Made by a program: the position numbers and the translations under genes. This document shows positions 24,536-63,103 of a stretch of DNA of 63,510 nucleotides, one piece after another. The notes under the pieces were generated by a model. It ran no database searches. It was not told where the DNA came from and saw only the letters and a list, made by a program, of their open reading frames with translations. Source of the stretch: a bacterium. Its GTDB lineage: Bacteria > Patescibacteriota > Minisyncoccia > Phycocordibacterales > UBA2100. Numbering within the stretch: the stretch's first letter is position 1; the number at the start of each line of letters is the position of its first letter. Where the stretch lies: the NCBI GenBank assembly GCA_030674455.1, contig JAUSGQ010000065.1, forward strand, positions 1-63,510. The letters run 5' to 3'.

Positions 24536-24542
24536 ATATGAA

Positions 24543-32895: not shown

Positions 32896-32915
32896 GACTG
32901 ATGCCGTCCTCACTT

Positions 32916-48200: not shown

Positions 48201-48647
48201 ATGCCGGACGCAACAGCAAAAAAACCTGCGCGCCGCGCGCCGCGCGCAAAGGCCGCAAGTAAAAAAGCGGCACCTGCCCCATCAGCGCAAGCCGCTTCCC
48301 CCTCTTCTCGCAAGACAGCACACTCTGGAAAAGCAGAGGCGCCCAGCCGCCTACGCATTCGCGTCCGCGCCTACGAGCACGGCATTTTGGATTCTTCGGT
48401 CAAACAAATTATAGACACAGCCGCTAGGTACAATGCCGAAATCGTCGGCCCCGTTCCGCTTCCGATAGACATAAAGAAATACACCGTGAACCGCGCCGCG
48501 TTTATCGATAAAGACTCGCGCGAGCAATTTGAGATGCGCATTCACAAAAGAATGATAGATATTTTGAATCCTGCACCGAAAGTAATCGAAGCCCTTTCAA
48601 ACATAGACCTTCCATCCGGCGTGAATATTGATGTCAAGATGATGTAA
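48201..48647 (+). CDS. rpsJ: 30S ribosomal protein S10 with a ~46-aa basic Ala/Lys/Pro-rich N-terminal extension
   Basis: The core LRIRVRAYEHGILDSSVKQIIDTA...GPVPLP...FEMRIHKRMIDI is preceded by MPDATAKKPARRAPRAKAASKKAAPAPS.... There is no alternative in-frame start. Confidence 0.9.
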   Translation: MPDATAKKPARRAPRAKAASKKAAPAPSAQAASPSSRKTAHSGKAEAPSRLRIRVRAYEHGILDSSVKQIIDTAARYNAEIVGPVPLPIDIKKYTVNRAAFIDKDSREQFEMRIHKRMIDILNPAPKVIEALSNIDLPSGVNIDVKMM

Positions 48648-48659
48648 GGGGTACTCAAA

Positions 48660-48746
48660 GACCCGCTTGTTTTTGACGGAGCCCAAACCCGTACCGTCTA
48701 CAGGTACACATCCCTACCCGATGTGCCCGTCAAAAACAAGCGGGTC
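48660..48746. repeat. 20-bp perfect inverted repeat enclosing a 47-nt loop with an inner hairpin
   Basis: GACCCGCTTGTTTTTGACGG (48660-48679) pairs with CCGTCAAAAACAAGCGGGTC (48727-48746). Inner stem GTACC...GGTAC. Confidence 0.8.
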
Positions 48747-48772
48747 ATTTCGCTTAGGTTGAGAAGAGAAAC

Positions 48773-48814
48773 GTATTGCTTTAGCAAATGCGGCCGCATT
48801 TGCTAAAGCAATAC
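48773..48814. repeat. 42-nt perfect palindrome with AAATGCGGCCGCATTT core
   Basis: GTATTGCTTTAGCAAATGCGG/CCGCATTTGCTAAAGCAATAC. Confidence 0.85.
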
Positions 48815-48898
48815 TCTAATACCTGCACGATGACATATCTCATGAGCGGGTGATGTAGGGGAAAGATACGGGCGCCCATTCTTTTTACGATTCTTCAG

Positions 48899-49528
48899 CT
48901 ACGAAATGCTGTACTCCTCAAGCGCGCGTTTTATTTTCTCGTCAGGCACTTCGAACCCCGGTTTGAACACGACTGGTTCGGCATAATTGATGTCGTCAAA
49001 ATATGAGAGCTGCTCGCGCAACAATCGCGAATTGAATTCGTTCCCGAACAACTTTTCCGTATGCCAGACGATTTCCGCAAGCGTGTGATATTCGCGCAGA
49101 ATGAAATACATGTCTACATAATCCTTCCATTTTGCTCGCTGGCCGAGCGCGAATGCTTTCATCGCGGCGAGCGTCAGAAGCGACGGCATTGCGATGTACG
49201 AGCCGAAGCGCTCCGTGTACGGTATCCGATACTCGAAGTGATAGAACGTAACCTGTACGCCGCGCGCCTTGAACGTGAACTCGCTACCTTTTTCACGTAT
49301 GACCGTATCTATAAACGCGTGCCGTTTGAATCGCCGTTTAAGTGTTGGAATATCGAAATCGTAATCGGGTTTCTTCGTGAACAGGTCAAAATCGATTGAT
49401 TCCCGATGCCCGATATGCAGGGCCACCGCAGTTCCGCCGACCAAGCCAAAATCTTTCGAGAACGGCTTTACCGCCGACAGAAGCTCTGTCTGTCCCTGCA
49501 CGAGAATTTCTTTATGCCATTTTGACAT
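48899..49528 (-). CDS. nucleotidyltransferase AbiEii/AbiGii-type toxin family protein
   Basis: FGLVGGTAVALHIGHRESIDFDLF and a DUF1814-like layout. ATG at 49528. Confidence 0.8.
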   Translation of the reverse strand: MSKWHKEILVQGQTELLSAVKPFSKDFGLVGGTAVALHIGHRESIDFDLFTKKPDYDFDIPTLKRRFKRHAFIDTVIREKGSEFTFKARGVQVTFYHFEYRIPYTERFGSYIAMPSLLTLAAMKAFALGQRAKWKDYVDMYFILREYHTLAEIVWHTEKLFGNEFNSRLLREQLSYFDDINYAEPVVFKPGFEVPDEKIKRALEEYSIS

Positions 49529-49790
49529 GTTTGTTGAAGTAGAGAGCAAAGTAATGGGCGGTTTCCGGATAATAATTGCCCCGCTGTCTTCCCGTAATCA
49601 TTTGCTTGCGGAATATCCGCGCGACTTTCTCCATGCCGAGGATTTTGATAAGCTCCTGCACGTCGTTCCAATTTCCGTAGTTGAGCGTGTGTTCCACAAT
49701 CGATTCCTCATTGAGCGCGCGGTAGTCCTTGACGTACCAGATAAGGTGCTTGCGTTTTGTTATGAAAGCGTAAAGTTCGTCGCTTAACAC
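49512..49790 (-). CDS. small protein upstream of and overlapping the AbiEii-like gene (candidate antitoxin)
   Basis: GTG start, 92 aa, and a 17-nt overlap with the toxin start. It does not look like a full-length AbiEi. Confidence 0.5.
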   Translation of the reverse strand: MLSDELYAFITKRKHLIWYVKDYRALNEESIVEHTLNYGNWNDVQELIKILGMEKVARIFRKQMITGRQRGNYYPETAHYFALYFNKHVKMA

Positions 49791-49891
49791 ATTTATATTA
49801 TACCACGTTTTCGGCTCTTGCGGCTAACCCCCGAGAAGTTTTTGGACTATATCGGAGGCCACATTGGTGTTTTTTATTATCACTATCAGAC

Positions 49892-49931
49892 TGTGGACAA
49901 CGCCGACCATGGCGATTGCGGGTGTATAATT
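49892..49931 (+). promoter_or_regulatory. cassette promoter module copy 1
   Basis: TGTGGACAACGCCGACCatGGCGATTGCgGGTGTATAATT. TATAAT at 49925-49930 lies 7 nt before the ATG at 49938. Confidence 0.6.
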
Positions 49932-49937
49932 GATGCG

Positions 49938-50447
49938 ATGGATTTAAAGAAAAGTTTTATAGTGTTATCGGCAATCCTCGTTCTGCTGGCCATTCTTGTC
50001 GCCGGAGCATTTCTAATGCAACGAACACAGCAGCAGCCACAGAACATCAATTTCGTGGGTACAGTTACGGACAAGAAAGAAAACGCAATAACCGTGGACC
50101 GTTTAGAGATTGCGGATAACGATTTGAAAAAAACTACAATTGTTCCGCAGACCGTTGAAATCACAGAAACAACAAAGTTTGTTCAGCGTGTCTTAAAAGA
50201 CAAAGAGCAGGTGAGACGTGAATTTGCGTCTAGTACGCCAAGCTCTCGCGCAAGCAATCCCATTTCTTTTTTTACGGAGAAGCCTTCCACTTTTGACAGT
50301 GTCGCGATTGGTGCAAAAGTTGCGGTAACAGCCAGTGAAAATGCTTTTGGGAGCACTCCTTCCGCTCTTGAAGTAAAAGTTCTGCCGGAGGAATTTAGTG
50401 TTACTGACCCGCTCGGGATTCCGCGCGCAGCACAATCAGAGAGATAA
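49938..50447 (+). CDS. hypothetical membrane-anchored protein
   Basis: MDLKKSFIVLSAILVLLAILVAGAFLM signal/anchor. Start chosen directly after the promoter module. Confidence 0.5.
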   Translation: MDLKKSFIVLSAILVLLAILVAGAFLMQRTQQQPQNINFVGTVTDKKENAITVDRLEIADNDLKKTTIVPQTVEITETTKFVQRVLKDKEQVRREFASSTPSSRASNPISFFTEKPSTFDSVAIGAKVAVTASENAFGSTPSALEVKVLPEEFSVTDPLGIPRAAQSER

Positions 50448-50448
50448 C

Positions 50449-51198
50449 ATGAAAAAATACTATTTCCTATTGCTGATTGCTTTTGCCTTTCTTCCGCTTT
50501 TCAGCGAAGCGGAAAATTACCCCTACACAGCGCCGGGTACATACACTTTCACTGTTCCCGCAGGCGTTTCAACTGTTACAGCTACGATTGCCGGTGCCGG
50601 CGGCGGCGGAGGAGGGGCAACTATGTCGGGTGACTATTGGACCGGCGGCGGCGGAGGCTCCGGCGGATACGTTACACAGGACATCTCTGTTACTGCGGGA
50701 CAACAACTTACTATCGTTGTAGGGGCTGGCGGCTGTGCAGGCCGTTACTATTATTTTGGTACAGACCGATGGGCCGAAACCGGAGTTGATTGGACATCTG
50801 CCACATATCATGGATGCCCTGCCGGACAGTATTCAGGCGGAAACGGCGGTGCTAGCTCGGTAGGTTCTGTTAGTGCAGCCGGCGGACACGGCGGAGATGT
50901 TGGCCTTGAGGAATGGGGACTTGATCATAATGACGGTGCCGGAGGTTCGCCAAGCGGAGTTGCCGGTACTCCAGGAGTGGTGTATCAGCCCGCGCCGTAC
51001 TCAAGTGAGTTGTGGTATCGCTATTGTGACGAAGTCCCCGATGGAAAAGGTCCTGGCGGCTACAACGGGTTGGGAGGTACTGGCGGCGACGGCATGGGAT
51101 GCAGCAATGGCACTGCGCAATATGGACAGAATGGCTCTGTCAATCTGACTTGGACAGCAGATATTCCAACGCCTACGGTGACGCTGCAGTTCCAATAG
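50449..51198 (+). CDS. secreted glycine-rich protein
   Basis: Signal peptide MKKYYFLLLIAFAFLPLFSEA, then YTFTVPAGVSTVTATIAGAGGGGGGA...GGGGGSGGYV...LTIVVGAGG. Confidence 0.65.
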   Translation: MKKYYFLLLIAFAFLPLFSEAENYPYTAPGTYTFTVPAGVSTVTATIAGAGGGGGGATMSGDYWTGGGGGSGGYVTQDISVTAGQQLTIVVGAGGCAGRYYYFGTDRWAETGVDWTSATYHGCPAGQYSGGNGGASSVGSVSAAGGHGGDVGLEEWGLDHNDGAGGSPSGVAGTPGVVYQPAPYSSELWYRYCDEVPDGKGPGGYNGLGGTGGDGMGCSNGTAQYGQNGSVNLTWTADIPTPTVTLQFQ

Positions 51199-51354
51199 AG
51201 ATGTTCAGATGCGAGACAAAATCCGCTGGGTAAACCTGCGGATTTTGTGATGTATGCACGGGTGTATTTAGTGTTCCTTATTACTCACGGTCGTGAGGAA
51301 TAAGGAACAGCAGAGAGACATACACTAACTGTGCGCGGGCGCGCACAGTTAGTG
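51178..51354 (+). repeat. cassette terminator module copy 1 (three hairpins)
   Basis: Includes the last codons of the gene. The 93-nt block 51262-51354 is identical to 52835-52927. Confidence 0.9.
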
Positions 51355-51428
51355 GGTGGTAGTTGGTGAAAAAATGAGCGAATGTTGCGTCATTTGTCAG
51401 CCGAAGGAAGCCGAATTCGCGACCCGTA

Positions 51429-51468
51429 TGTGGACAACGCCGACCTCGGCGATTGCTGGTGTATAATT
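51429..51468 (+). promoter_or_regulatory. cassette promoter module copy 2
   Basis: 37/40 identical to 49892-49931. TATAAT at 51462-51467 lies 7 nt before the ATG at 51475. Confidence 0.6.
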
Positions 51469-51474
51469 AGGGGG

Positions 51475-52098
51475 ATGAATTTAGATTCCAGGAAAATTGC
51501 CGCAGCATTGTCATTCGCTCTTGCAATGCCGTTGATTGCTTTTGCGCAAGGAAGTGCGTCGGCTCCAACCGCCGATAGTCAGGCACCTCAAACAAGCGAT
51601 ATCTTTTCCTTCGTTCTCGACAAAGGTATCTACACATGGGGGGACCCGATAACAATCATTCTTTCTCTTTCACCCGAAGGTGAACAGGCGGAAAAAAAGA
51701 GCGCTCTTCTTTTTGACGCTGACATCAAAAACACAGCCGGAGTAGCGTGCGCTGTAATTACGAAAGACCATCCGGTCCGTAGCGAAGCCCCTGTTCTCCA
51801 GCCATTTCCCACGGAGAAGGATTCATATAAATTTGTGTTACCGAATAGAAAAGGATGCGCGGGGCCATCGACGGTTAACATTGCGCTAAAAACGCAAGAC
51901 AATTCGCAAGTCGCTATTACGAGCGTTCCCGTATCAATGCTAGAGTCGGCGACAGCGCCGACGGTATGGACGGATAAACCGTTGATACAGCAAAAAGATA
52001 CAACAAGCTCTATCCCGATAATTCCGACTGCCATACTCCTGTTCGCTGCACTTTGCGTAGCCGGGTATGTTGCGTGGCGGAAAAAGAGATATCAGTAA
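51475..52098 (+). CDS. hypothetical secreted protein with C-terminal TM anchor
   Basis: Signal peptide MNLDSRKIAAALSFALAMPLIAFA and C-terminal IIPTAILLFAALCVAGYVAWRKKRYQ. Confidence 0.55.
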   Translation: MNLDSRKIAAALSFALAMPLIAFAQGSASAPTADSQAPQTSDIFSFVLDKGIYTWGDPITIILSLSPEGEQAEKKSALLFDADIKNTAGVACAVITKDHPVRSEAPVLQPFPTEKDSYKFVLPNRKGCAGPSTVNIALKTQDNSQVAITSVPVSMLESATAPTVWTDKPLIQQKDTTSSIPIIPTAILLFAALCVAGYVAWRKKRYQ

Positions 52099-52134
52099 AC
52101 TAGAAGTCAGGAATTCACAAAATAAACTCTCATT

Positions 52135-52776
52135 ATGTTCACAGAAAATCGTTCATCGCTTAACGACCGGAAGCTATCCATAGCGTTGATTCTCTTTTCA
52201 TCAGCAATCCTTTTAGCGTGGGGATTCGCAAGCGCGGCATCTCGAACTTGGACATATGGCGACTGGACACGAGATTGTCAGGTAGTAACAAAAGGTGTTG
52301 ACGGGCTATATTACGATTCTGAAGGCGCGGTGGTAACTATAGGCAATGGGTGGACGGTATCAGAACCATTCACGGATGAAAACGGTACGACTTACACCAT
52401 CTGCGGACCTGAATATTACATAACTAGTGCAACATTCAATGCCTCCACCGACAAGGATACGTACACTCCAGGCGAGACAGTTACAGTTTCCGTCAGTGCA
52501 GATAATGGATGGTATGGTAGCGGGGGCACAGCTGTAGGGGTAGCAGCTGCCTTCGGAGGAACACAAGTTGCCCAGTGTTCTTTGACTAATGTCTGTAGCG
52601 CCTCGGGGTCTTTTACCGCCCCAGCAGCGAATGGTACTTACACCATTCAACTGAGTGGATGCACTGTCACCTCTGAATATTGTGCCAATTCCACTATGGC
52701 TATAACAGTCGAGTCGCCTCCGCCATCTCCGCCAGAATCGGGGGGGACGCCTTCGGTGACGCTTCGATTCGAATAG
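52135..52776 (+). CDS. hypothetical secreted protein
   Basis: N-terminal anchor/signal LSIALILFSSAILLAWGFASA. The C-terminus SVTLRFE parallels TVTLQFQ of the 50449 gene. Confidence 0.55.
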   Translation: MFTENRSSLNDRKLSIALILFSSAILLAWGFASAASRTWTYGDWTRDCQVVTKGVDGLYYDSEGAVVTIGNGWTVSEPFTDENGTTYTICGPEYYITSATFNASTDKDTYTPGETVTVSVSADNGWYGSGGTAVGVAAAFGGTQVAQCSLTNVCSASGSFTAPAANGTYTIQLSGCTVTSEYCANSTMAITVESPPPSPPESGGTPSVTLRFE

Positions 52777-52927
52777 AGATGTTCGAATGCGAGGCAACAT
52801 CCGCAGTTCATGCGGATTTTGAGATATATGCTCGCGTGTATTTAGTGTTCCTTATTACTCACGGTCGTGAGGAATAAGGAACAGCAGAGAGACATACACT
52901 AACTGTGCGCGGGCGCGCACAGTTAGT
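52755..52927 (+). repeat. cassette terminator module copy 2
   Basis: See 51178-51354. Confidence 0.9.
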
Positions 52928-52951
52928 GTATGAGAGGAAAACAGGGGTAAG

Positions 52952-53086
52952 CTATTCAAACAAATCGACGTGCGAGCCGGTGCGAGCGAGAAGAACTTCT
53001 GTATCCGTAACATCATAAATCAACAGCCAATTCGGACCGATGTGGCATTCCCAGAATCCCAGCCACTCTCCGGTTAAAGACTTCCG
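52952..53086 (-). pseudogene. 5'-truncated YafQ/RelE-type toxin remnant
   Basis: The C-terminal part LTGEWLGFWECHIGPNWLLIYDVTDTEVLLARTGSHVDLFE matches the YafQ pattern. The N-terminal half is absent at the IS boundary. Confidence 0.6.
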
Positions 53087-53089
53087 GCC

Positions 53090-53665
53090 AGAACTCCCTG
53101 CGCTTGTGCGCAGGGATGAATGGCCGCAGATGCAATACAATAGGTATGCATGTCTCGCACACCGGATATCAAATCAAAAGAAGGACTATGGCTTTGGTAT
53201 CACAATGTCTCGGAGTGCTACTATCATATACAAATTACGGTAAAGTATCGGAAGTCGTTGTTTGACGAACCGGTACAGAAGCTCATGCTCCAAATCGTGA
53301 GCGGGTTCAAGGAGCGTTACGCCATCGATATTCACGAAATCGGATTCGACCAGAACCATGTCCACCTGCTGTGCCGTTTCCTCCCCAAATACAGCGGAGG
53401 CCAAGTCATCAAGCTCATCAAATCAATTACAGCAAGCCAGCTATTCAAATTCATACCCAAACTCAGGAAAGAGCTGTGGGGAGGGGAATTCTGGACGGAC
53501 GGCTACTACATCGCCACAATCTCCGGCAAGGGAGACAAGCGCGTGATTGAAAGGTACATCCGAAACCAGGGACGCGAGAAAGATATTCCCCAGCTTCGAC
53601 TCTTCACGCTCGACTAACCATTGGCATCCAGACGTCAACGCCCTGCGCTTGTGCGCAGGGTGGGT
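53090..53665 (+). mobile_element. IS200/IS605-family-like (Y1 transposase) element bounded by identical hairpins
   Basis: CCCTGCGCTTGTGCGCAGGG occurs at 53096-53115 and again at 53641-53660, flanking the tnpA gene. Confidence 0.7.
53150..53617 (+). CDS. tnpA: IS200-like Y1 (HUH) transposase / REP-associated tyrosine transposase-like
   Basis: YHIQITVKYRKSLF, QNHVHLLCRF (HUH) and WTDGYYIATISG (catalytic Tyr region). Confidence 0.85.
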   Translation: MSRTPDIKSKEGLWLWYHNVSECYYHIQITVKYRKSLFDEPVQKLMLQIVSGFKERYAIDIHEIGFDQNHVHLLCRFLPKYSGGQVIKLIKSITASQLFKFIPKLRKELWGGEFWTDGYYIATISGKGDKRVIERYIRNQGREKDIPQLRLFTLD

Positions 53666-54120
53666 TTACGGACATTCCCGTGCAGATATGCCAGTTCCAC
53701 CAGATCAAGCAGGTAACGAAGTACCTGACTCGACGCCCCGATACGGAGGCGGGAAAAGAATTGCGAACGCTGATACTAACGCTCACCGATGTTGACGAAA
53801 AAACATTCACCGACGCGCTTAATGCATGGCACGCGAAGTGGGGCGGCTACATAGAGGAAAAGACTGTCAACTCATTCGTTACGGGAAAACAGAAGTGGTA
53901 CTACACACATGGCAGAGTGCGCTCTGCATACCGCTCAATTAAAAGCAATCTCCCCTACCTGTTCACCTATTTGAAATACCCTGAACGGAACATTCCGAAC
54001 ACCACCAATGACCTTGATGGTTCTTTTTCCGCGCTCAAGAAGAAGTTGGCCGCGCATCATGGACTACGGCGCGACCGACGCTACAAAGTTATCTCCCAAT
54101 TGTTAAAAAACGCGCGCTAG
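53661..54120 (+). pseudogene. C-terminal fragment of a DDE transposase (IS256/Mutator- or ISL3-like)
   Basis: DIPVQICQFHQIKQV and IPNTTNDLDGSFSALKKKL resemble the C-terminal half of such transposases. The N-terminal catalytic part is missing. Confidence 0.55.
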
Positions 54121-54182
54121 ATTCAGCAACCCGTTTCTTTCTTTAAACCGAAATACGCAAGGACCACCCTTATATTCCCTGA

Positions 54183-54212
54183 AACCTAAGACCTAGAACC
54201 TACAACCTTCCT
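54183..54212. repeat. AACCT-core heptad array
   Basis: AACCT, GACCT, AACCT and AACCT at 54183, 54190, 54197 and 54204. Confidence 0.85.
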
Positions 54213-55170
54213 AAATGCTCACGCTAGCCGAATTATTTCCCTCGTTCGATTCCTTTACTTCGTTTACCGGATCAAGTGATACAGAAAAGAGTCCGCCGGG
54301 GACTGCATTCTTGAAACGCAGCATGTTCTCGATGCTTGCTCCGGGAGCGAGAGATGTTTGCGCGGGCGAAGTGTATGGATACATCGGAGATGTCGGCAGT
54401 TGTGCCGTAAAGTACCACGGGCCGGTGGATGAGCCGCTCGCATTTGTGATCAAAAAACGCACCGCGACTAGGTCATTCGGCGATACGGGTTCGCGAGGAA
54501 TTATGTTGCCGCTTATCGGGTCGATAACGCCCGTGGACAAAATTCGCACAGAAAGGTCGGCAACTCCTGTAGTCGAGGGAGCTGTAATTGTTTGCGGTTG
54601 AGTCTCAACTGCAGGAGCCGATTCTGTTACGGGGCTCGTCTCTACCGGAGCAGTGCCCGCTCCTACAACCGTTACAGTGGCATTGCCTTGCGGCTGCGCC
54701 ACGGTTTTGCCCGGGGTGACGGGCGCGCTCGATATGAAAATAACAGAAAGCGGAACCTTGACGGTGGATGTTCCGGTGAGGTACGGAGTGACTGCGAACT
54801 TGTTATCGGTCGAGAGCATTGTGTAGCCGACTCCGCATGGAATGACAATTTGCTTGTTGTCGGGCGAGGTCGTTTTGAATTGAAAACCCTCGCGGCACTG
54901 GTAGAGGAATGCGTATGTCCCCGTACCTGCAGGGTTGTATTTCCAGGAAACGGTGAACTGTTCGCCGGAGGGAATGTTCTTGGTGGGCACCGTTAATTTT
55001 ATAGATTTTGAAGAAGAAAGGATTGACGAAAAGGATGAGAACCATGAGCCGGAAAATAATGCCAGATTACTGGCTCCCCAAACGATTATTCCAATGAGTA
55101 TTACGAGACCCGCTACCGCGAGTATATTTGAAAACATTCCTGACTTCTCCGGCACGGGTGTTTCAGCCAT
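54211..55170 (-). CDS. membrane-anchored protein with C-terminal CARDB-like domain
   Basis: N-terminal TM helix. C-terminus ADLSVRIL...VAVRFLITNASGSSTGPWYF...SLDPVNEVKESNEGNN. Confidence 0.65.
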   Translation of the reverse strand: MAETPVPEKSGMFSNILAVAGLVILIGIIVWGASNLALFSGSWFSSFSSILSSSKSIKLTVPTKNIPSGEQFTVSWKYNPAGTGTYAFLYQCREGFQFKTTSPDNKQIVIPCGVGYTMLSTDNKFAVTPYLTGTSTVKVPLSVIFISSAPVTPGKTVAQPQGNATVTVVGAGTAPVETSPVTESAPAVETQPQTITAPSTTGVADLSVRILSTGVIDPISGNIIPREPVSPNDLVAVRFLITNASGSSTGPWYFTAQLPTSPMYPYTSPAQTSLAPGASIENMLRFKNAVPGGLFSVSLDPVNEVKESNEGNNSASVSI

Positions 55171-55265
55171 GGCGGTTATTATTATACATATGCGTACCTT
55201 GTCAATTAGTCATTTTTCTTGTACTCTCATACTCTCATGCTAATTACAAGATAGCCGATGTCATC

Positions 55266-55295
55266 ACCCAGTAGGTCATTCTGCTGAATGAGGTG
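55266..55295 (+). promoter_or_regulatory. 30-nt motif shared with 58969-58998
   Basis: ACCCAGTAGGTcATTCTgCTGAATgAGGTG, 99 nt upstream of khpA. Confidence 0.5.
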
Positions 55296-55393
55296 CCGAC
55301 CATCAATCGGTCGGCAAAACGACGTTGACCGCGTATCAATAGTCTTGTATCCTCACAGTAATTATAAGTTCAACCTAAGATAGCAAGCCAGAT

Positions 55394-55753
55394 ATGGAAC
55401 AAGACCAGCAGTTTTTGGAGTATGTCGTTAAGGCATTGGCCGACCATCCGGAGGATGTAAAAATTACTCGTACCGTTGATGAAATGGGTGTATTGCTTGT
55501 GCTTTCCGTCCACAAGGACGACATGGGAAAGATTATCGGACGCTCGGGACAGACGGCGAAAGCGATTCGCACAGTTCTACGAGTAGTCGGTATGAAGAAC
55601 GACGCGCGCGTAAACCTGAAAATCGAAGAGCCGGAAGGAAGCGAGCGGACGCCTCGCAGAAGCGAAAATGCAGGCGCGAGCGCTGCACCCGCAGAGCCAT
55701 ACGTGCGCGACACTACAGTTGAGGATGTGATACGAGACCTGAAGGCAGAATGA
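55394..55753 (+). CDS. khpA: KH-domain RNA-binding protein (KhpA/YlqC-like) with C-terminal tail
   Basis: FLEYVVKALADHPEDVKI...GKIIGRSGQTAKAIRTVL. Confidence 0.8.
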   Translation: MEQDQQFLEYVVKALADHPEDVKITRTVDEMGVLLVLSVHKDDMGKIIGRSGQTAKAIRTVLRVVGMKNDARVNLKIEEPEGSERTPRRSENAGASAAPAEPYVRDTTVEDVIRDLKAE

Positions 55754-55840
55754 GCGTATAGCGAATAGCGTTTAGCGTATAGAGGCAAACAACTGCGAAT
55801 TTTGTATTTCCTAAACGCTCTACGCTAGTCGCTAATCGCT
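55753..55840. repeat. AGCGNNN x5 / spacer / inverted CGCT x4 heptad arrays
   Basis: AGCG at 55753, 55760, 55767 and 55774 (AGAG at 55781). CGCT at 55816, 55823, 55830 and 55837. Confidence 0.9.
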
Positions 55841-55846
55841 ACCTTT

Positions 55847-56500
55847 ATGCTCCATTTCCACATCATCACCCTGTTTCCCGAATCAATCGAGCCGTATCTC
55901 AAGAGCTCGATTATTGGGCGCGCGATAGAAAAAAAACTCATAAAAGTTTCTTATTACAACCCAATAGAATTCACTCGCACTAAATACGGCCGCATAGACC
56001 AGCGACCCTACGGCGGCGGCCCCGGAATGGTACTTGAGCCGGAGGCAGTCTTAAGAGCGGCGCAGAAAGCCATGTCAAGGCGAGGCCTTGACAAAAAAAG
56101 CATCGAGAAGATTTTCTTCTCGACTGACGGAGCGTTGTTTGATGAGGCGATGGCGAAAAAGCTTTCAAAAAAGAAAAATATTCTGCTTATTTGCGGACGG
56201 TACGAAGGCGTGGACGCGCGCGTGCCAAAAATCCTGCGCGCGAAACCGATTACAGTCGGACCATATGTATTAACAGGCGGGGAATTACCGGCGGCAACTG
56301 TGATTGACGCAGTCGCAAGATTCGTTCCGGGAGTTCTTGGCAAAGCGGAATCATTGGAGCGTTCCAGAGTTTCCAGCCCCGAGGTCTACACCCGCCCCGA
56401 AATCCTAGTTTGGAAAGGTAAGAAATACCGAGTCCCGAAAGTATTATTGTCCGGTAACCATGCCGACATAAACGCCTGGAAAACGCGGCGAAAGAAGTGA
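55847..56500 (+). CDS. trmD: tRNA (guanine37-N1)-methyltransferase
   Basis: HIITLFPE, DQRPYGGGPGMVL, CGRYEGVDARV and LTGGELPA. Confidence 0.95.
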   Translation: MLHFHIITLFPESIEPYLKSSIIGRAIEKKLIKVSYYNPIEFTRTKYGRIDQRPYGGGPGMVLEPEAVLRAAQKAMSRRGLDKKSIEKIFFSTDGALFDEAMAKKLSKKKNILLICGRYEGVDARVPKILRAKPITVGPYVLTGGELPAATVIDAVARFVPGVLGKAESLERSRVSSPEVYTRPEILVWKGKKYRVPKVLLSGNHADINAWKTRRKK

Positions 56501-56513
56501 GAATTGACTCTAT

Positions 56514-56541
56514 AACCTAAAACCTACTGCCTAGAACCTGC
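56514..56541. repeat. AACCT heptad array
   Basis: Cores at 56514, 56521, (56528) and 56535. Confidence 0.85.
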
Positions 56542-56641
56542 CCACCGTTATCCCCAGCCCAAAAATAAGCCATTGGGTCTCGTGTATTATGTATTAAGAT
56601 TAGAACCAGAACCTTTCTTTATTAACTGTAATTAAAGCTTG

Positions 56642-56684
56642 TTCCTAAAACCTAGAACCTGGCATCTATAACCTATTCCTGCCT
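56642..56684. repeat. AACCT heptad array
   Basis: Cores at 56642, 56649, 56656, (56663) and 56670. The array ends at the ATG at 56685. Confidence 0.85.
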
Positions 56685-58607
56685 ATGTCAACGAATTCAT
56701 TCCGTTTTGCAATCGCATCCCCAATAATCCTTTTTGTGATGATAGTACTTTTGATAATTCCCACTCCTTCCCGCGCAATAGTTTCTCCCTCGGGTGCAAA
56801 TGGTCGGCAGCTTCCATCGTGGCAAGTCCCAACAAATTTGACCGCATGCGATGGTTTTTTTAGTAATTTCTTTGGTAATCTGACGGGTTATTGTTCTGCA
56901 CAGCAAGATGCGATAAATCAAACGATATTACGAACTGGCTCAGCCCCTGCCAATTCAAATTCAGGAGGAGGTTTTATTAGTGGCGCAAACGCAGCGCCAT
57001 CACCTACCACACCACGAATAGCATTTCCAGTAACGAGAACACTAAATGTGGTCAAAAGTCCAAGTACAGCATCGGCAACCAATCTCAATGAAGAGTATAT
57101 TACTCTAGCTAATGATAATCCGGTTAAATTCCAGAGTATGGTGGTAGATTCGTGCAATGCGAATTACGATAAAGCGTGCAATTCTACTGAACTGAGGGCG
57201 TATTATGCTGAGAACAGAGATGCAATTATAGCTCCAGCCCCAGCAACCAGTCCAGCTTTCACCATCAGCATGTCCGAATTACAAAACGATGCAAAGTCCG
57301 TTTGTGCCGACCCCGCTTATCGCTATCCAGACGAGTCCCAAGCCGTATGTCAGCAGGTTTACATAACAGACTATCTGGACGCTAACAAAGGAGTTCTTTC
57401 AACAGCCCCAGCCGCACCTCCAGCTGATTCTGTCTCAGTCCAAGTTCCAAGCTACTATTGGGATTCATCCTCTGGAAAAATTTGGAAAGATAATACTGTA
57501 ATAGGTAATACAGATACCGTGCCTGTTTACGATCAAGCCGAAGCGCAAAAGATTATCAATGTGCTCTCACGAGGATCCGGCTACACATACACGTTACCAG
57601 CAACAGCTCCTCGGACAATCGTCCCCGGGCCGGCCATAGATGGAGATACGGCGTATTACTCAATCGGAGACATGCGGCTGATGTATAACGCGTGCGATGG
57701 CGACAGAAATCCAGATACGTGCAAAGCAAACTTGAGGAACCAATTCAGTTTTGATCCAACTTCTTGTCAACCTGGAGATTTTAAGTGTATCGCCGAGCAA
57801 ACAACTATGCAGGAAAATGCAGATGCGGAGGCATATCCATCCGAAGCTTCAACACGCGCTGCAGAAACACAGGCACTCCTTGAGCGAGCTTGGAACATGC
57901 CACCAGAATCATCACGGCCATGCGAGACATGGATGGGTGGAGATGGATGCGCCACAGAAGCTGATGCTGTGCAAGCATTTAGGGAATCCTGCGATTCGCA
58001 AAACCAAACGTCTTTCCTGTTTTTCTTCTCGCGAGTTGATACAGCAGCATCGGCAAGTTGTGTTCAAGATTTACAAAGACAGGCAGGATTCTCACAGCCT
58101 CCTGCACCTGTGTCAGAGCAAGGCATACAGGCAGTGCAGCCAACTCTCCTAGGTTCCAGTTATCCAAATCCTTTGGACGGAGACAATCTAAACACTCAAC
58201 AAACTTCATCGGGTTCAGGCACTGGTGTTACAGACATCCTTTCGAATTTTTGGGGTGCAATAAAAAGCATTGGGCAGTCCCCAGAGCAATCAACATCAGC
58301 ACAACCAGTAACCATTGATCCTAATCGAGAATATCCGGACGGTACTTTAAACGGCATTCCGCTTGATTTCGGTGTCGGTGATGATCAATCTTCTGAGAGT
58401 ATCGAAGCTGATGTTCAAGCTCATTTGCAATCGGTTTCTGAACAGCAGGCTGCCGAAGTACCCGCTGGTGAGACTGACCAGACTGACGAGTCAGGTGGCC
58501 CATTTCCCGGCGCAGCGGATCCTTTGGAGTCTAACTGGTGGTGGTCTCCAAACGTTATCAATGCGTATCCTTCCGGATATGTGCCAGGCTATTCCGAGCA
58601 AGAATAG
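56685..58607 (+). CDS. large Cys-containing secreted/anchored orphan protein (640 aa)
   Basis: N-terminal TM/signal IASPIILFVMIVLLIIPTPSRA. No recognisable domain. Visibly more AT-rich than the neighbouring genes. Confidence 0.6.
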   Translation: MSTNSFRFAIASPIILFVMIVLLIIPTPSRAIVSPSGANGRQLPSWQVPTNLTACDGFFSNFFGNLTGYCSAQQDAINQTILRTGSAPANSNSGGGFISGANAAPSPTTPRIAFPVTRTLNVVKSPSTASATNLNEEYITLANDNPVKFQSMVVDSCNANYDKACNSTELRAYYAENRDAIIAPAPATSPAFTISMSELQNDAKSVCADPAYRYPDESQAVCQQVYITDYLDANKGVLSTAPAAPPADSVSVQVPSYYWDSSSGKIWKDNTVIGNTDTVPVYDQAEAQKIINVLSRGSGYTYTLPATAPRTIVPGPAIDGDTAYYSIGDMRLMYNACDGDRNPDTCKANLRNQFSFDPTSCQPGDFKCIAEQTTMQENADAEAYPSEASTRAAETQALLERAWNMPPESSRPCETWMGGDGCATEADAVQAFRESCDSQNQTSFLFFFSRVDTAASASCVQDLQRQAGFSQPPAPVSEQGIQAVQPTLLGSSYPNPLDGDNLNTQQTSSGSGTGVTDILSNFWGAIKSIGQSPEQSTSAQPVTIDPNREYPDGTLNGIPLDFGVGDDQSSESIEADVQAHLQSVSEQQAAEVPAGETDQTDESGGPFPGAADPLESNWWWSPNVINAYPSGYVPGYSEQE

Positions 58608-58631
58608 GGAGAATATCTGTCAATTATTCTC

Positions 58632-58787
58632 ATGAAACCCACAGGCTCGTTCATCCGCTTCGCGCTCGGGTTTCTCGCTTTCATCGGCGTGAGTTTTGCC
58701 GTAACTATTACGCTGGATAAATACGCCTCATCACAGGATTCTGCGCAAACGGCGGCGGTACAATCGGCTTTGTCTGGAAGCCAGTGA
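58632..58787 (+). CDS. possible small membrane protein (51 aa)
   Basis: MKPTGSFIRFALGFLAFIGVSFAVTITL.... It falls below the ORF-track size cut-off and was read directly from the sequence. Confidence 0.3.
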   Translation: MKPTGSFIRFALGFLAFIGVSFAVTITLDKYASSQDSAQTAAVQSALSGSQ

Positions 58788-58804
58788 TAATCAAAGGGAT
58801 GATT

Positions 58805-58865
58805 CCTGGCTGGATTGCTTCGCGTTGCTCGCAATGACGATGTCTTTCTGGATTGCTTCGTTGTA
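58805..58865. repeat. CTGGATTGCTTCG...GCTCGCAATGAC repeat (related to 7588-7686)
   Basis: CTGGATTGCTTCG occurs at 58810 and 58848, and TCGCAATGAC at about 58829. Confidence 0.6.
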
Positions 58866-58968
58866 TATCCAGATAGCTTCGACGCTCGACTATGACGTGT
58901 TGACTCGATCTATTTATTCAGTAGAATGCATCGCGTAAGGCTAGAGACAGCGAGCATGGGCAGGTGCT

Positions 58969-58998
58969 ACCCAGTAGGTGATTCTACTGAATCAGGTG
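58969..58998 (+). promoter_or_regulatory. 30-nt motif shared with 55266-55295
   Basis: ACCCAGTAGGTgATTCTaCTGAATcAGGTG, 123 nt upstream of rplJ. The CAGTAG/CTACTG stem is preserved via a G-U pair in the other copy. Confidence 0.5.
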
Positions 58999-59056
58999 TC
59001 AGGTGCTAGGTGTCAGGAAATTCCTGGAACCTAAAACCTGGAACCTGGAACCTGTT
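58994..59056. repeat. AGGTGNN x3 facing NNAACCT x4 heptad arrays
   Basis: AGGTG at 58994, 59001 and 59008. AACCT at 59028, 59035, 59042 and 59049. Confidence 0.9.
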
Positions 59057-59120
59057 CCTGTCAGGCTTGCCAAGGTCGTTCTTAGTTGCCTTGCATTATC
59101 AGAATAGTTTTTGTATTGCA

Positions 59121-59624
59121 ATGGCAAAAACAAAAGAGGAGAAGGGAAAGATAATAGACAAACTGGAAAATGCGTTCAAAAACGCTTCTTCTTCAGTTCT
59201 GGTCCACTTCACAAAAGTCACCGTGGCGGAAGAATCCGCGATGCGCAGAAATCTGCGCGCGGATGGCATTTCATATACCGTGGCAAAGAAGACGCTTATT
59301 CGGCGCGCGCTAGACAAGCTTGGCTTGAAGCACGATGACGTGGAACTCCAGGGAGAAGTGGCGATGGTGTACGACTCATCAAAGGAGGGCGACCCGACAG
59401 CCGTCGCTCGCAAGGTCTTGGAATTCGTCAAGAAACTGGGGGCCGAAAAGCTCTCGATTCTTTGCGGGACATTTGAGGACAGATTTGTCGGACAGACTGA
59501 AATGCGCGAAATCGCGACCATCCCGTCGCTTCATACGTTGCGCGGTATGTTCGTGAATGTCATCAGCTCGCCTATGCGCGGACTCGTCGTGGCGTTAAGT
59601 GCAATTGCGGAGAAGAAAGCATAG
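59121..59624 (+). CDS. rplJ: 50S ribosomal protein L10
   Basis: MAKTKEEKGKIIDKLENAFKNASSSVLVHFTKVTVAEESAMRRNLR. The ATG at 59121 is preferred over the track start inside the heptad arrays. Confidence 0.9.
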   Translation: MAKTKEEKGKIIDKLENAFKNASSSVLVHFTKVTVAEESAMRRNLRADGISYTVAKKTLIRRALDKLGLKHDDVELQGEVAMVYDSSKEGDPTAVARKVLEFVKKLGAEKLSILCGTFEDRFVGQTEMREIATIPSLHTLRGMFVNVISSPMRGLVVALSAIAEKKA

Positions 59625-59639
59625 GTATTAACAGGAATT

Positions 59640-59770
59640 TGCAAAACCCAATTTGCAATTTGGCAAACAAAATCCCAAAACCTCAATACCCAAAAGACGA
59701 AGTTTGAGAATTGTAATTTGTAATTTCTTTGCAAATTGATTTTTGGAGCTTGCAAATTAGCAATTAACAA
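59640..59770. repeat. NGCAA/CCCAA heptads followed by inverted TTG heptads in the rplJ-rplL spacer
   Basis: Cores at 59640, 59647, 59654, 59661, about 59668, about 59675, 59682 and 59689. TTG cores at 59711 and 59718, and at 59729, 59736, 59743, 59750, 59757 and 59764. Confidence 0.8.
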
Positions 59771-59782
59771 TAATTGAAATAT

Positions 59783-60214
59783 ATGTCCGAAGATACAAAG
59801 ATAACAGCAGGAGCAGAGCCAGTGGTAGAGCAAGTGGCTGAAGTTCCTGCGAAGTTCAAGAAGCTCGTAGAGGAAGTAGAAAAGATGACGGTCTTGGAAT
59901 TAAACGAACTGGTTAAAGTTCTCGAAAAGAAATTCGGCGTGTCGGCGCAAGCTGCAGCCGCCGGCCCCGCCTCCGCCCAGGCTTCGGCGGGCGAGGAAGA
60001 GAAAAGCGAGTTCAATGTTGAACTCACAGCAGTCGGCGAGCAGAAAATCGCAGTCATCAAGGTGGTGAAGGAAGTTCTCGCACTTGGCCTCAAGGAAGCG
60101 AAAGACCTAGTAGAAAGCGCCCCCGCGATGCTGAAGGAGGGTGTAAAGAAAGAAACAGCAGACGAGTGGAAAAAGAAGATTGAGACAGCGGGTGGAAAAG
60201 TTACGTTGAAGTAA
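59783..60214 (+). CDS. rplL: 50S ribosomal protein L7/L12 with ~20-aa N-terminal extension
   Basis: [42 protein letters not shown] and GGKVTLK*. Confidence 0.9.
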
Positions 60215-60278
60215 CTTTTCGGCCGGAGCAGCGACGGCTGCGAGGCGGGGACGCGCACATTTTCAGCAGAAAATGATG

Positions 60279-60302
60279 CGTGGAAAAGTCACTTTGAAAT
60301 AA
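60279..60302 (+). pseudogene. relic copy 2 of the rplL 3' end
   Basis: (R)GKVTLK* with synonymous changes and its own compensated hairpin AAAGTCACTT tgaaat AAGTGACTTT. Confidence 0.5.
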
Positions 60303-60373
60303 GTGACTTTGGCGCACGCGGGCTCATTTGTGCGACGGCGCGAATGACGTCGAAATCAGTAGATTTCGACGAT

Positions 60374-60397
60374 GGCGGTAAAGTTACGCTGAAATAA
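60374..60397 (+). pseudogene. relic copy 3 of the rplL 3' end
   Basis: GGC GGT AAA GTT ACG CTG AAA TAA encodes GGKVTLK*. Confidence 0.5.
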
Positions 60398-60404
60398 TCA
60401 AAAT

Positions 60405-60494
60405 TCCCGAGGAGACACCTCCCCGTAGGTGAGAAGTCACCTCGAACAAAATCCACGAGACACCTCCCCCAGGGGTGAGGAGTCACCTCGGGAA
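60405..60494. repeat. structured element with the same arms as 48058-48131
   Basis: TTCCCGAGGAGACACC (60405-60420) pairs with GGAGTCACCTCGGGAA (60479-60494). It contains two ~35-nt direct sub-repeats. Confidence 0.7.
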
Positions 60495-60560
60495 CCGGAC
60501 TCACCTCGGAAATGGAAAAATAACGCCGAAATACGTCTTTTTTCGGAATCCAAAGAGATT

Positions 60561-60598
60561 TTCTGCGTAAATCTGCGTTTGTTCTGCGTAAATCTGCG
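60561..60598 (+). promoter_or_regulatory. direct repeat TTCTGCGTAAATCTGCG x2 (period 21) upstream of the wHTH gene
   Basis: Copies at 60561-60577 and 60582-60598. TAGTAT lies 6 nt before the ATG at 60633. Confidence 0.55.
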
Positions 60599-60632
60599 AG
60601 CCACGATGTGGCTATTGTGGTAGTATCGGCGC

Positions 60633-61268
60633 ATGGGGAAGGACTTTCTTGAGAAATTCATCGGAAATCACACGCGTGCGCAAGTTGTCCGAGTTTTTAT
60701 ATTTGCTCCAAATGAGCGCATGACAGTCGCGCAAGTTGCGAAACGTTCGAGTGTCGGCGCGCCTGCTGTCGGCAAAGAGATAAAAGTTTTGGAGGAAATG
60801 GAGGTCATAGTAAAAGAAAAAAGCCCTAGAGTTCAGAACAAAAAATCTACCAAACGCGGGAAAGGACGTCGTTCCCCTAAACAGGAAATAGCATGGATCC
60901 TCAATCTGCAATTCAAATATTTGCGCGCCCTTTCCTCATTTGTACATGAAGTTTCTCCGATCCGGTACGACAATATTTTGAATGCGCTAAAAACTACCGG
61001 CCGCCTCTCCGTTGTCATAGCGTCCGGTTGCTTGACGGGCGATATCACGCGCCCGGTAGACCTGATAGTTGTGGCAGATAACTTGAACGAGAGCCGACTT
61101 GAGCATGCCATACGGTCGCTTGAACCGCTTTTCGGACGAGAACTACGATATTCGACCTTCGGAACGATGGAATTTACATACCGCCTTACTATTCACGACC
61201 ATCTGCTCCGCGATATTTTGGATTATCCGCATAAGGTTCTGCTTGACCGCGCAGGCGCTCTTAAGTAG
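60633..61268 (+). CDS. hypothetical protein with N-terminal wHTH-like region
   Basis: RAQVVRVFIFAPNERMTVAQVAKRSSVGAPAVGKEIKVLEEMEVI resembles an ArsR/MarR-type wHTH. The C-terminal domain is unassigned. Confidence 0.5.
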   Translation: MGKDFLEKFIGNHTRAQVVRVFIFAPNERMTVAQVAKRSSVGAPAVGKEIKVLEEMEVIVKEKSPRVQNKKSTKRGKGRRSPKQEIAWILNLQFKYLRALSSFVHEVSPIRYDNILNALKTTGRLSVVIASGCLTGDITRPVDLIVVADNLNESRLEHAIRSLEPLFGRELRYSTFGTMEFTYRLTIHDHLLRDILDYPHKVLLDRAGALK

Positions 61269-61417
61269 CAGGAGCAGTACGCAAAAAGTGCCTTTTTTTG
61301 GCTATCCACACACTGGCCGCGAGCCCCCGTTCGCGCCCATTTACGGTGCTATCATTGATGCCATACGAGGTCGAAATCGTTATACGAGTTATTATTAACA
61401 TTTATAAGGCGTAAAAT

Positions 61418-62107
61418 ATGATAGTTACACAATCAGCAAGCGTGGTTCAGACATCGCTGCAGAATCTGTGGTGGGTCGTCGTGCAATTCTTGCCGGCAAT
61501 TCTGGTGGCAGTAGTTGTTTTTGTCATCGGCTGGGTAGTCGGCATTATTCTGTATCGCGTAGTCGAACAGATAGTAAAGGTATTGCGCATTGACGACGCT
61601 CTGAAAGCGACCGGCGTCAATGAAGCCGCGAAAAGCGCGGGCTTCAATTTGGATATCGGCCGTTTTCTGGCCACGTTGGTCAAGTGGTTCATAGTAATCG
61701 TATTCCTGATGGCGTCCCTCGATATTCTGGGCCTCAGTCGGGTTACCATATTCCTGCAGCAGGTGGTTTTGCTATATCTCCCGCAGGTAATCGTTGCGGT
61801 AATTATCCTCATCATCACGGCAATTGTCGCAGAGGTGGTAAGAAATTTGGTTTCTACTTCCGCTCGCGCTACGGGCGCGCACGCGGCGAATCTCGCTGGC
61901 GCGGTGGCCAAGTACGCGATTTGGATTTTCGGCATTCTCGCAGCCTTGAACCAGCTCAATGTCGCGTCTGAATTCGTGACAACCTTGTTCCAAGGATTTG
62001 TGGTTGCATTCGCACTTGCTTTCGGCTTGGCATACGGGCTCGGAGGCAAAGAAGCGGCGGCTCGCACGATAGAGCGCATCCGTTCGGAAATTGCGCACCG
62101 CTCGTAA
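61418..62107 (+). CDS. conserved-TM-helix repeat membrane protein (mechanosensitive-channel-related)
   Basis: Repeated TM helices each followed by an amphipathic segment (LPAILVAVVVFVIGWVVGIILYRVV; LPQVIVAVIILIITAIVAEVV). Confidence 0.6.
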   Translation: MIVTQSASVVQTSLQNLWWVVVQFLPAILVAVVVFVIGWVVGIILYRVVEQIVKVLRIDDALKATGVNEAAKSAGFNLDIGRFLATLVKWFIVIVFLMASLDILGLSRVTIFLQQVVLLYLPQVIVAVIILIITAIVAEVVRNLVSTSARATGAHAANLAGAVAKYAIWIFGILAALNQLNVASEFVTTLFQGFVVAFALAFGLAYGLGGKEAAARTIERIRSEIAHRS

Positions 62108-62200
62108 TTGTTTCTTCAGAAATAATTTCGAAGAAACGCGCCCCTACGGGGCGCGTTTCTTTTGCTACACCTCAATGTGCTAACGGGGTACAATGTTCCA

Positions 62201-62893: not shown

Positions 62894-62978
62894 TCTGCAT
62901 ATTGGTCATGAAATTGGCATGAAATCGGTTAGACCGATTTCCAATCGGGTTATCCACGAAAGATGGCGTTAACACTGG

Positions 62979-63007
62979 TTGACACACAATAGCGCGTCCG
63001 CTATACT
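62979..63007 (+). promoter_or_regulatory. sigma70-type promoter (TTGACA, 17 nt, TATACT)
   Basis: TTGACA at 62979-62984, an exact 17-nt spacer, and TATACT at 63002-63007. It lies about 370 nt upstream of the 23S 5' end. Confidence 0.6.
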
Positions 63008-63081
63008 CTTCATCACATATGGTAATCACTTCAAGTCTCCCAAAAGTGGCGTAGGTAGCCAGCCAAAAGCTGCGCAACCCA

Positions 63082-63103
63082 TGCCGCTCTTAAGCGGCTT
63101 TTT
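63082..63103 (+). terminator. GCCGCT cttA AGCGGC hairpin plus T6 (terminator-like, contains a boxA-like GCTCTTAA)
   Basis: Stem at 63082-63097 and T run at 63098-63103. Confidence 0.45.

Follow-up and report, generated by a model that had tools for sequence, protein, structure and literature searches.

In Borrelia burgdorferi, the erp loci carry one conserved 5' region (the upstream homology box with the erp operator) in front of unrelated surface-protein operons, and the section on erp transcription in PMC9112904 describes this common promoter/operator and the co-expression of the operons via common DNA-binding proteins, and refers to cited literature for recombination among the erp-flanked genes. 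Here we describe a locus whose closest functional analogue is this erp system: two tandem two-gene operons, named cassette 1 (genes P1 and P2) and cassette 2 (genes P3 and P4), which lie between the same 5' and 3' modules in a stretch of 63,510 nucleotides (nt) of DNA from a Patescibacteriota bacterium (hereafter the window; coordinates are positions in it, on the + strand unless stated otherwise). In Borrelia, the erp regions are located on many cp32 prophage plasmids and their regulators BpaB, BpuR and EbfC are known, whereas the window has two tandem chromosomal copies and no known regulator, its two operons also have the 3' end in common, and the joints lie inside coding sequence.

The explanation that we favour, with a probability of about 0.6, is a one-off graft of the promoter/operator and the 3' end of cassette 1 onto the P3-P4 pair, followed by gene conversion of a 93-nt block. 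It looks like a single local event and not like a running exchange system. The window sequence was found in one sequencing run only, a groundwater metagenome, and in no RNA run.

Two unrelated gene pairs within the same flanks

The initial annotation of the locus had proposed two tandem two-gene cassettes with common modules at both ends, and this arrangement was confirmed together with its positions. The 5' module is present at 49892-49931 and 51429-51468 (37/40 identical), without any other copy within the window and with 0 matches in shuffled windows. The likeness runs on to 49946 and 51483, respectively (47/55), and thereby covers the ATG and two further codons. Copy 1 (49892-49946) consists of TGTGGACAA, a dyad, TATAAT (49925-49930), a 7-nt spacer, the ATG (49938) and two codons, and copy 2 (51429-51483) has its TATAAT at 51462-51467 and its ATG at 51475. 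The likeness of the 3' modules begins at 51169 and 52747, 30 nt 5' of each stop codon and thus slightly earlier than first annotated, whereas the hairpins and the identical terminal block were found as described. The 3' modules are 84% identical over their first 58 nt; an indel of 4 nt affects the loop of hairpin 1, and a block of 93 nt without any difference forms the end (51262-51354 = 52835-52927). By our own arithmetic, the probability of 93 identical bases in a row at 16% divergence is ~1e-7, and the block therefore has a separate and more recent history, having been homogenised or acquired later.

Between these flanks, cassette 1 contains P1 (49938-50447), whose product of 169 amino acids (aa) has a membrane anchor at the N-terminus and a beta-rich ectodomain and belongs to no known family, and P2 (50449-51198), which starts 1 nt past the P1 stop and encodes a 249-aa protein that includes a signal peptide and a glycine-rich domain of phage-fibre type. 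Copy 1 of the 3' module (51169-51354) covers the last 10 codons of P2 and then hairpin 1 (51216-51248, followed by TTTTG), hairpin 2 (51272-51309) and hairpin 3 (51323-51354, or 51319-51354 if imperfect outer pairs are counted). A unique spacer of 74 nt (51355-51428) separates the cassettes; it matched neither the sequence 5' of copy 1 nor that 3' of copy 2, and no convincing homology was seen between the spacer, or the sequence past hairpin 3, and the other copy or the related genome L076 described below. In cassette 2, P3 (51475-52098) encodes a 207-aa protein with a signal peptide, an immunoglobulin-like (MG-type) beta-sandwich and a C-terminal membrane anchor, and P4 (52135-52776) a 213-aa protein whose beta-rich domain is accompanied by a signal peptide or anchor. 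Copy 2 of the 3' module (52747-52932; hairpin 2 at 52846-52883, hairpin 3 at 52893-52932) takes in the 10 final codons of P4 and ends 20-24 nt from the stop of a convergent yafQ-like gene remnant.

Each operon thus pairs a membrane-anchored protein (P1, P3) with a second one that has a signal peptide or anchor at its N-terminus (P2, P4). All four are unrelated to one another, as first annotated, the sole common stretch being TP(T/S)VTL(Q/R)F(Q/E), the nine C-terminal residues of P2 and P4. The modules might have been found only here and have arisen by a simple tandem duplication with divergence of the cargo. The 5' and 3' modules as such were indeed found only here, apart from the 5' module of one close relative, but with flanks that are 84-100% alike around unrelated cargo, simple duplication is excluded.

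Integron cassettes resemble this locus in that they are tandem units with unrelated cargo, each with a conserved hairpin-forming 3' element. They differ in being usually promoterless single genes with one imperfect attC hairpin (RYYYAAC, GTTRRRY) and in depending on IntI, whereas each unit in the window comes with a promoter, two genes and three distinct, near-perfect hairpins. The module end GTTAGTG does not fit GTTRRRY, and no integrase was found among the ten neighbouring open reading frames (ORFs), which were the only window proteins scanned singly for IntI/attI.

Logan unitig L001 (51325-52865), which stems from an independent assembly of the source run, agrees with cassette 2 at every base; alone it does not prove the link across the 93-nt repeat. 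Cassette 1 had a unitig depth of 37.6, cassette 2 one of 38.0 and the downstream flank one of 38.2, with no sign of variants without a cassette, and the depth of 54 for the 93-nt block versus 38 for its flanks indicates about two copies per genome. It is extremely unlikely that the repeat was mis-resolved and that cassette 2 lies elsewhere or on a separate circle of 1.57 kb. The Logan unitigs (k = 31) do break within the repeat, leaving the link from cassette 1 to the spacer without confirmation from them, but the equal depth of both cassettes and both flanks argues against such an artefact, and the repeat is shorter than a normal read while its copies differ just upstream, so that reads can span it. 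Even with a wrong link, the common modules around unrelated cargo would stand.

The suggestion in the initial annotation that the glycine-rich region of P2 is of phage-fibre type agrees with Pfam, PHROG and the predicted fold: P2 matches Gly_rich_2 (PF21722) with 38.9 bits (cut-off 24.3) over profile positions 1-216 of 226 and PHROG tail-fibre families with E-values of 1e-7 to 1e-3, and its AlphaFold2 model (pLDDT, the predicted local confidence score, 79) has its best PDB matches in the fibre of cyanophage Pam3 (7ypx, E 1.6e-6) and the tail tip of Bxb1 (9d93), followed by the glycine-rich domain of ALK/LTK. Unlike the phage tail-fibre proteins, P2 is a small cellular protein that carries a signal peptide and is secreted, and the chromosomal operon encoding it has no phage genes nearby. 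The AlphaFold2 model of P3 (pLDDT 68.5) matches the folds of alpha-2-macroglobulin MG and GbpA domains, and P4 has weak MG2-like Pfam matches. In a word-indexed protein search, P1 and P4 were near-orphans.

Relatives of the two cassettes

The metagenome-assembled genome (MAG) of a close relative (L076/L077), whose EF-Tu and S10 are 98% and 91% identical to those of the window, carries cassette 1 at the same site, after rpsJ and the DUF6922-AbiEii pair. In L076 the orthologue of P1 is a 178-aa protein in the same position (62% identical), the orthologue of P2 is P0003 (57% identical), and the only close homologues of P1 and P2 sit together in L076/L077. Upstream of the P1 orthologue stands TGTGGACAACGC-aagcaga-GGCGATT-at-GGGTGTATAATT, followed by 7 nt and the ATG, which is 33/40 identical to the 5' module of the window, with the differences clustered in the centre of the imperfect dyad. 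The orthology between the window and L076 reaches about 40-60 nt further upstream; the segment common with cassette 2 starts sharply at 49892. At the other end, the C-terminus of P0003 (...PTVNLFFSQ) is similar to that of P2 (...PTVTLQFQ), and a hairpin of the hairpin-2 type is located about 140 nt past P0003. Since the L076 orthologues carry the 5' module and a similar tail, both the 5' module and the C-terminal tail are, by this comparison, native to cassette 1. Nothing resembling cassette 2 was found past P0003 in L076/L077, where a PemK toxin gene comes next.

Homologues of P3 were obtained by an exhaustive profile-free search (P0042, 43%; P0043, 49%; P0046; P0048). In L080, a P4 homologue lies directly after the P3-family gene (E 1e-8), and in L078 the corresponding gene starts with MYLENQSS..., to be compared with MFTENRSS... 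in P4; P3-P4 is thus a conserved pair. The 5' module is absent upstream of the P3-family genes in L078, L079 and L080, and these upstream regions align with one another: a GTTATCCAC box, 28-32 nt, TATAAT or TATACT, 9-10 nt and the ATG. In the window, copy 2 of the 5' module stands where the P3-family genes elsewhere have GTTATCCAC-N28-32-TATAAT/TATACT. The N-terminus of P3 is MNL-DSRK... versus M-SSK.../M-VPK... in its relatives, which is consistent with a derivation of the first three P3 codons from the 5' module. The tail of P4 would likewise have been replaced, as suggested by the nucleotide homology that runs through the stop codon, and the inner joints of the copied flanks, located by sequence comparison inside the first and the last gene of cassette 2, are in frame. 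From the native flanks in L076 and the different promoter of P3-P4 elsewhere, we conclude that the flanks of cassette 1 were copied onto a foreign P3-P4 operon.

According to the proposed course of events, cassette 1 would be a resident operon in the variable island after rpsJ of an uncultured groundwater bacterium of the Candidate Phyla Radiation (CPR) type. It would be expressed from a -10-only promoter as a leaderless mRNA starting on or beside the ATG, with the upstream dyad as its putative operator, and the operon would close with one hairpin of nearly canonical terminator type and, past it, two long palindromic ones. Cassette 2 would be a pair that elsewhere has its own promoter and whose ends were here replaced by copies of the cassette 1 flanks, namely a segment that spans -46 to +9 around the start codon and another that begins with the final 10 codons of P2 and includes the 156 nt of untranslated sequence past its stop. 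At both 3' ends the distal 93 nt would later have become identical, most simply by gene conversion. Two unrelated surface-protein pairs would as a result be started, regulated and terminated by the same signals and hence be co-expressed, and co-regulation of the two operons is the likeliest consequence of the event.

Putative expression signals in the flanks

The view of the initial annotation that the expression signals, and not the cargo, are the conserved parts was borne out in that the flanks are non-coding and the cargo is non-homologous; their role as signals is a deduction from the features that follow. The 5' module contains an imperfect dyad, CAACGCC-N6-GGCGATTG, the arms of which (CAACGC / GCGATTG) are conserved while the 6-8 nt spacer varies, and the centre of which lies about 30 nt before the ATG, making it a candidate operator. 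A perfect TATAAT was present in both window copies and in L076, and the distance of exactly 7 nt to the ATG, as first annotated for the two cassettes, was confirmed in both copies and has the same geometry in L076. A consensus scan gave no -35 site, the best match being CCGACC (3/6) at 16 nt, and a TGGACA located 25 nt upstream is too far. Across the window, a TANNNT motif ends 4-12 nt before the start in 22 of 53 crude gene calls, versus 10.8% of all ATGs (p 9e-9), and a Shine-Dalgarno-like (SD-like) motif was seen at just 7 of the 53. Because TATAAT-7 nt-ATG occurs in three loci, -10-like motifs are enriched throughout the window and SD-like motifs are few, a leaderless or near-leaderless transcript is our best inference for both cassettes. 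The 5' module would accordingly combine a promoter with a candidate operator for a leaderless mRNA, and the window-wide counts suggest that the genes of the window are mostly transcribed into leaderless or very short-leader mRNAs.

Leaderless promoters reduced to a -10 box occur in Actinobacteria and Deinococcus. The 5' module resembles them in having TATAAT about 7 nt from the start codon, no SD sequence and no conserved -35 box; it differs in that the evidence in the window is positional enrichment, so that such promoters are predicted for this lineage. To our knowledge, the gene expression signals of CPR bacteria (Patescibacteria) are almost unstudied. A promoter/operator of ~55 nt that is conserved between genomes and was probably copied in front of an unrelated operon offers a comparative handle on these signals; leaderless mRNAs are what its geometry points to, and judging from the rest of the window they may be the norm.

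The 5' module could also be coding if translation started at the GTG in TGTGGAC, which would place an N-terminal peptide VDNAD.GDC.CII before the signal peptide. This frame is open in all three loci and the gene caller picked the GTG in L076, but chance alone would leave a frame of 15 codons open in about half of all cases (by our own arithmetic), and an acidic extension of 15 residues ahead of a signal peptide is atypical. The differences between the copies are moreover mostly non-synonymous and clustered in the dyad spacer, a perfect TATAAT stands exactly 7 nt before the ATG that opens the signal peptide in all three loci, and the recorded gene calls for the window copies begin at the ATG (169 and 207 aa). 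We therefore consider a coding 5' module very unlikely and retain the promoter/operator.

Boxes similar to that of DnaA were noticed in several of these upstream regions. The first nine bases of the 5' module (TGTGGACAA, the reverse complement of TTGTCCACA; 49892-49900 and 51429-51437) form such a 9-mer, as does the GTTATCCAC box upstream of the -10 box in the P3-family promoters (L078, 3-11; L079, ~604-612; L080, ~246-254), and a further one (62949-62957) is found ahead of the 23S rRNA gene, where a canonical promoter has its -35 box (TTGACA) 22 nt further downstream. DnaA boxes with at most one mismatch numbered 20 in the window versus 13.6 expected, and GTTRTCCAC 3 versus 0.6 expected, two of the three being the duplicated copies; the idea is a weak lead, and statistically weak. 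A second common module, unrelated to the first, precedes four or five consecutive genes (15179-15643, 16847-17035, 18713-18901, 19410-19555 and 24530-24587). It consists of heptamer arrays (GTATTCN / GAATACN, in either orientation) with a G+C-rich hairpin after them (e.g. 16959-16985), and its copies are 64-80% alike (families D1-D4).

Both 3' modules fold into three stem-loops, with minimum free energies of -85 and -94 kcal/mol and z-scores of -7.8 and -9.7 versus shuffled sequences. Hairpin 1 has a G+C-rich stem of 6-9 bp (ATCCGC...GCGGAT) and is followed by TTTTG in both copies. It comes close to a classical intrinsic terminator but, with 3-4 T left free depending on the stem end chosen, narrowly misses either the scan rule (5 T in 8) or the loop limit. 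No U-run follows hairpins 2 and 3, which are long palindromes with near-perfect pairing. Similar palindromes, with arms of 18-26 bp, an apex that is often CGGCCG or CGGTCG and no T-run, are located 3-40 nt past many stop codons of the window, often between convergent genes (e.g. 11613-11658, 24087-24123, 30148-30193, 32852-32897, 34371-34416 and 48773-48814), and look like the ordinary gene-end signal of this genome. Such long hairpins, and not hairpins followed by U-runs, appear to mark most gene ends in the window.

Hairpin 2 belongs to a wider family, TGTTCCTTATT-N5-CGGYCG-N5-AATAAGGAACA, which was found by scanning GTDB-representative genomes, the window's own genome not being among them, with the hairpin 2 box. 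Its hosts are MAGs labelled Kaiserbacteria and Saccharibacteria as well as unclassified bacteria, one of these genomes being co-resident in the same sample, and its members sit just past gene ends. No weight was given to the conserved outer stem, which is part of the search pattern. In the variable inner stem of the 11 distinct members, 92% of the cells are paired versus 83% in shuffles, with 0 of 500 shuffles as good, and six pairs are changed on both sides in a compensatory manner. The 3' module was read as a probable terminator region because of the strong folds, the TTTT(G) after hairpin 1, the palindromes past stop codons and the retained pairing of hairpin-2 relatives at gene ends.

Rfam gave only a sub-threshold match to a miRNA hairpin, at the gathering threshold and at E<=1. 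The possibility that GTTCCTTATT is a DNA uptake sequence was rejected, as its core occurs almost only in inverted pairs. In two other genomes (L013, 6185-6223; L003, 418-456), a member of the hairpin-2 family has a 3' arm with a TATAAT (…TATAATAAGGAAC), placed exactly 7 nt upstream of the ATG of a real ORF, and this one hairpin may end one gene and promote the next. Short intergenic repeats were also seen between distant loci of the window, at 29077-29111/47961-47995 (35 nt, 91%) and at 24088-24119/29226-29257 (32 nt, 88%), forming families D9 and D6, one of which sits between tuf and rpsJ.

Single event, exchange system or mobile element, and the surrounding island

Further copies of the modules, for which the initial annotation had suggested searching the genome and pangenome, were not found beyond the window and the 5' module of L076 with its orthologous cargo; hairpin 2 alone recurs, in the family described above. 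In a fuzzy search of all loci fetched, the 5' module was found only as the two window copies and the L076/L077 orthologue, and outside the window there was no match to the stop-proximal 3' core, hairpin 1 or hairpin 3. In the source run (7.5 million contigs) and two sister runs, no other contig reached 80% likeness to the 5' module or to hairpin 3; the same test with the hairpin 1 region recovered copy 1 alone, showing a limited sensitivity to indels. An exact-pattern scan of Joint Genome Institute (JGI) metagenomes for the 5' core (ACAACGCCGACCNNGGCGATTG) gave six matches, all of them chance matches without TATAAT or TGTGG context, and exact-pattern scans of viral contigs for the 5' core and the stop-proximal 3' core gave none. 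Since the 93-nt block has a unitig depth of 54 versus 38 and no similar contig was found elsewhere in three metagenomes, the graft looks like a one-off event.

The initial annotation had likened the locus to a cassette system for swapping or diversifying surface proteins, which was not supported: there are about two copies of the block and, in the three metagenomes, no other contigs similar to the 5' module or hairpin 3, and the relatives of P3-P4 have a promoter of their own. Such a system might nevertheless act at the level of the population, with the modules as handles for homologous recombination by which surface-protein operons are swapped, added or lost between strains; in one variant, a circular or incoming cassette would have recombined at the 3' module in a Campbell-type manner, leaving two direct 3' copies. 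The order 3' module, spacer, 5' module, cargo and 3' module is indeed that expected from a single crossover at the 3' module, and the unrelated cargo within common flanks, the in-frame inner joints, the 8-16% by which the flanks differ elsewhere than in the 93-nt block (as though the second cassette had brought its flanks along from a diverged donor) and the position in an island that varies between relatives all fit. However, no third copy and no other cargo were seen in the source metagenome, the two sister runs, the JGI exact-pattern scan or the two viral scans, and the only other genome with the 5' module has orthologous cargo. The P3-P4 relatives use another promoter, and the equal depth of the cassettes and their flank gives no sign of variants that have lost or exchanged a cassette. 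The same flanks around different cargo were not encountered, at a sensitivity of exact patterns or at least 80% likeness, and we regard a population-level system as unlikely. Somewhat more doubtful is the generalisation that portable flanks, consisting of a ~55-nt leaderless promoter/operator and a multi-hairpin 3' end, serve as recombination handles that graft operons in frame behind rpsJ. If true, such flanks would be an operon-level counterpart of gene cassettes without a dedicated recombinase, and the pair in the window would be the first sampled instance.

It is quite unlikely that the 3' block originated as a mobile or selfish palindrome of the repetitive extragenic palindrome (REP) or miniature inverted-repeat transposable element (MITE) kind that came to lie behind both operons and was perhaps moved by the adjacent IS200-type Y1 transposase, in which case it would be no terminator module. 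The 93-nt block is 100% identical in surroundings of 84% identity, the hairpin 2 family is spread over several related genomes in unrelated contexts, and the Y1 transposase gene lies 220 nt 3' of copy 2. The homology of the 3' ends, however, sets in as early as 93 nt ahead of it, inside the coding regions, which means that the 93-nt block was not inserted independently at unrelated sites. The depth indicates about two copies in the genome, the insertion sequence (IS) has a different end hairpin of its own (53085-53126) and is present about three times, and hairpin 3 has no relatives in any locus fetched. Dispersed copies were not found, there being no further matches in the window or the source metagenome and relatives of hairpin 2 in other genomes only. 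The ends of the IS200/IS605 element were also rejected as a source of the modules, as its hairpin is distinct and the 5' and 3' modules are unlike each other. REP sequences, bacterial interspersed mosaic elements (BIMEs) and Correia elements are similar in being post-gene hairpin repeats able to act as terminators or mRNA stabilisers, and hairpin 2 belongs to such a family; they number tens to hundreds of copies per genome, whereas the block in the window has about two, within a longer duplicated segment that includes coding sequence.

Several points weigh against the one-off graft that we prefer. Promoter function, the leaderless start, termination and co-regulation are all inferred from sequence; a canonical -35 box is missing from the 5' module (3/6 at 16 nt), as is a U-run from hairpins 2 and 3. 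The native C-terminus of the P4 family was not seen, both homologous contigs (L078, L080) being cut. The course of events could have been a duplication followed by replacement or an insertion followed by patching, and each route needs at least two illegitimate joints and is not simple. The public scans used exact patterns and may miss diverged copies, the 5' variant of L076 being one that would escape the 5'-core pattern, and 63.5 kb of the genome are visible, so that the copy number elsewhere rests on k-mer depth and non-branching unitigs. Being a single occurrence known from DNA sequence, the finding is modest. It would be a natural example of rewiring by the copying of both operon ends, and it predicts the co-regulation of two unrelated surface-protein pairs.

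The genes are arranged in the order tuf, rpsJ, AbiEii/DUF6922 (minus strand), cassette 1 and cassette 2, followed by a truncated yafQ-like toxin gene, an IS200-type element, a CARDB protein gene, khpA and trmD. The placement of the cassettes in an accessory region after rpsJ, next to a toxin-antitoxin pair and IS debris, was thus upheld, with AbiEii/DUF6922 upstream and the yafQ-like remnant and tnpA downstream. The yafQ/ParE-like toxin gene (52952-53140, minus strand) is interrupted by the IS200-type element, leaving its last 42 codons. This element extends from 53074 to about 53790, with tnpA at 53150-53617 and the end hairpin mentioned above, and its depth of 110 versus 38 corresponds to the about three genomic copies. 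In the window (48201-63510), no rplC was found within 15 kb past rpsJ, khpA, trmD, rplJ, rplL and the 23S rRNA gene being present instead, and in L076 an 11-kb accessory island (1089-13519) with toxin-antitoxin genes, surface proteins and a protein of 1034 aa separates rpsJ from rplC-rplD.

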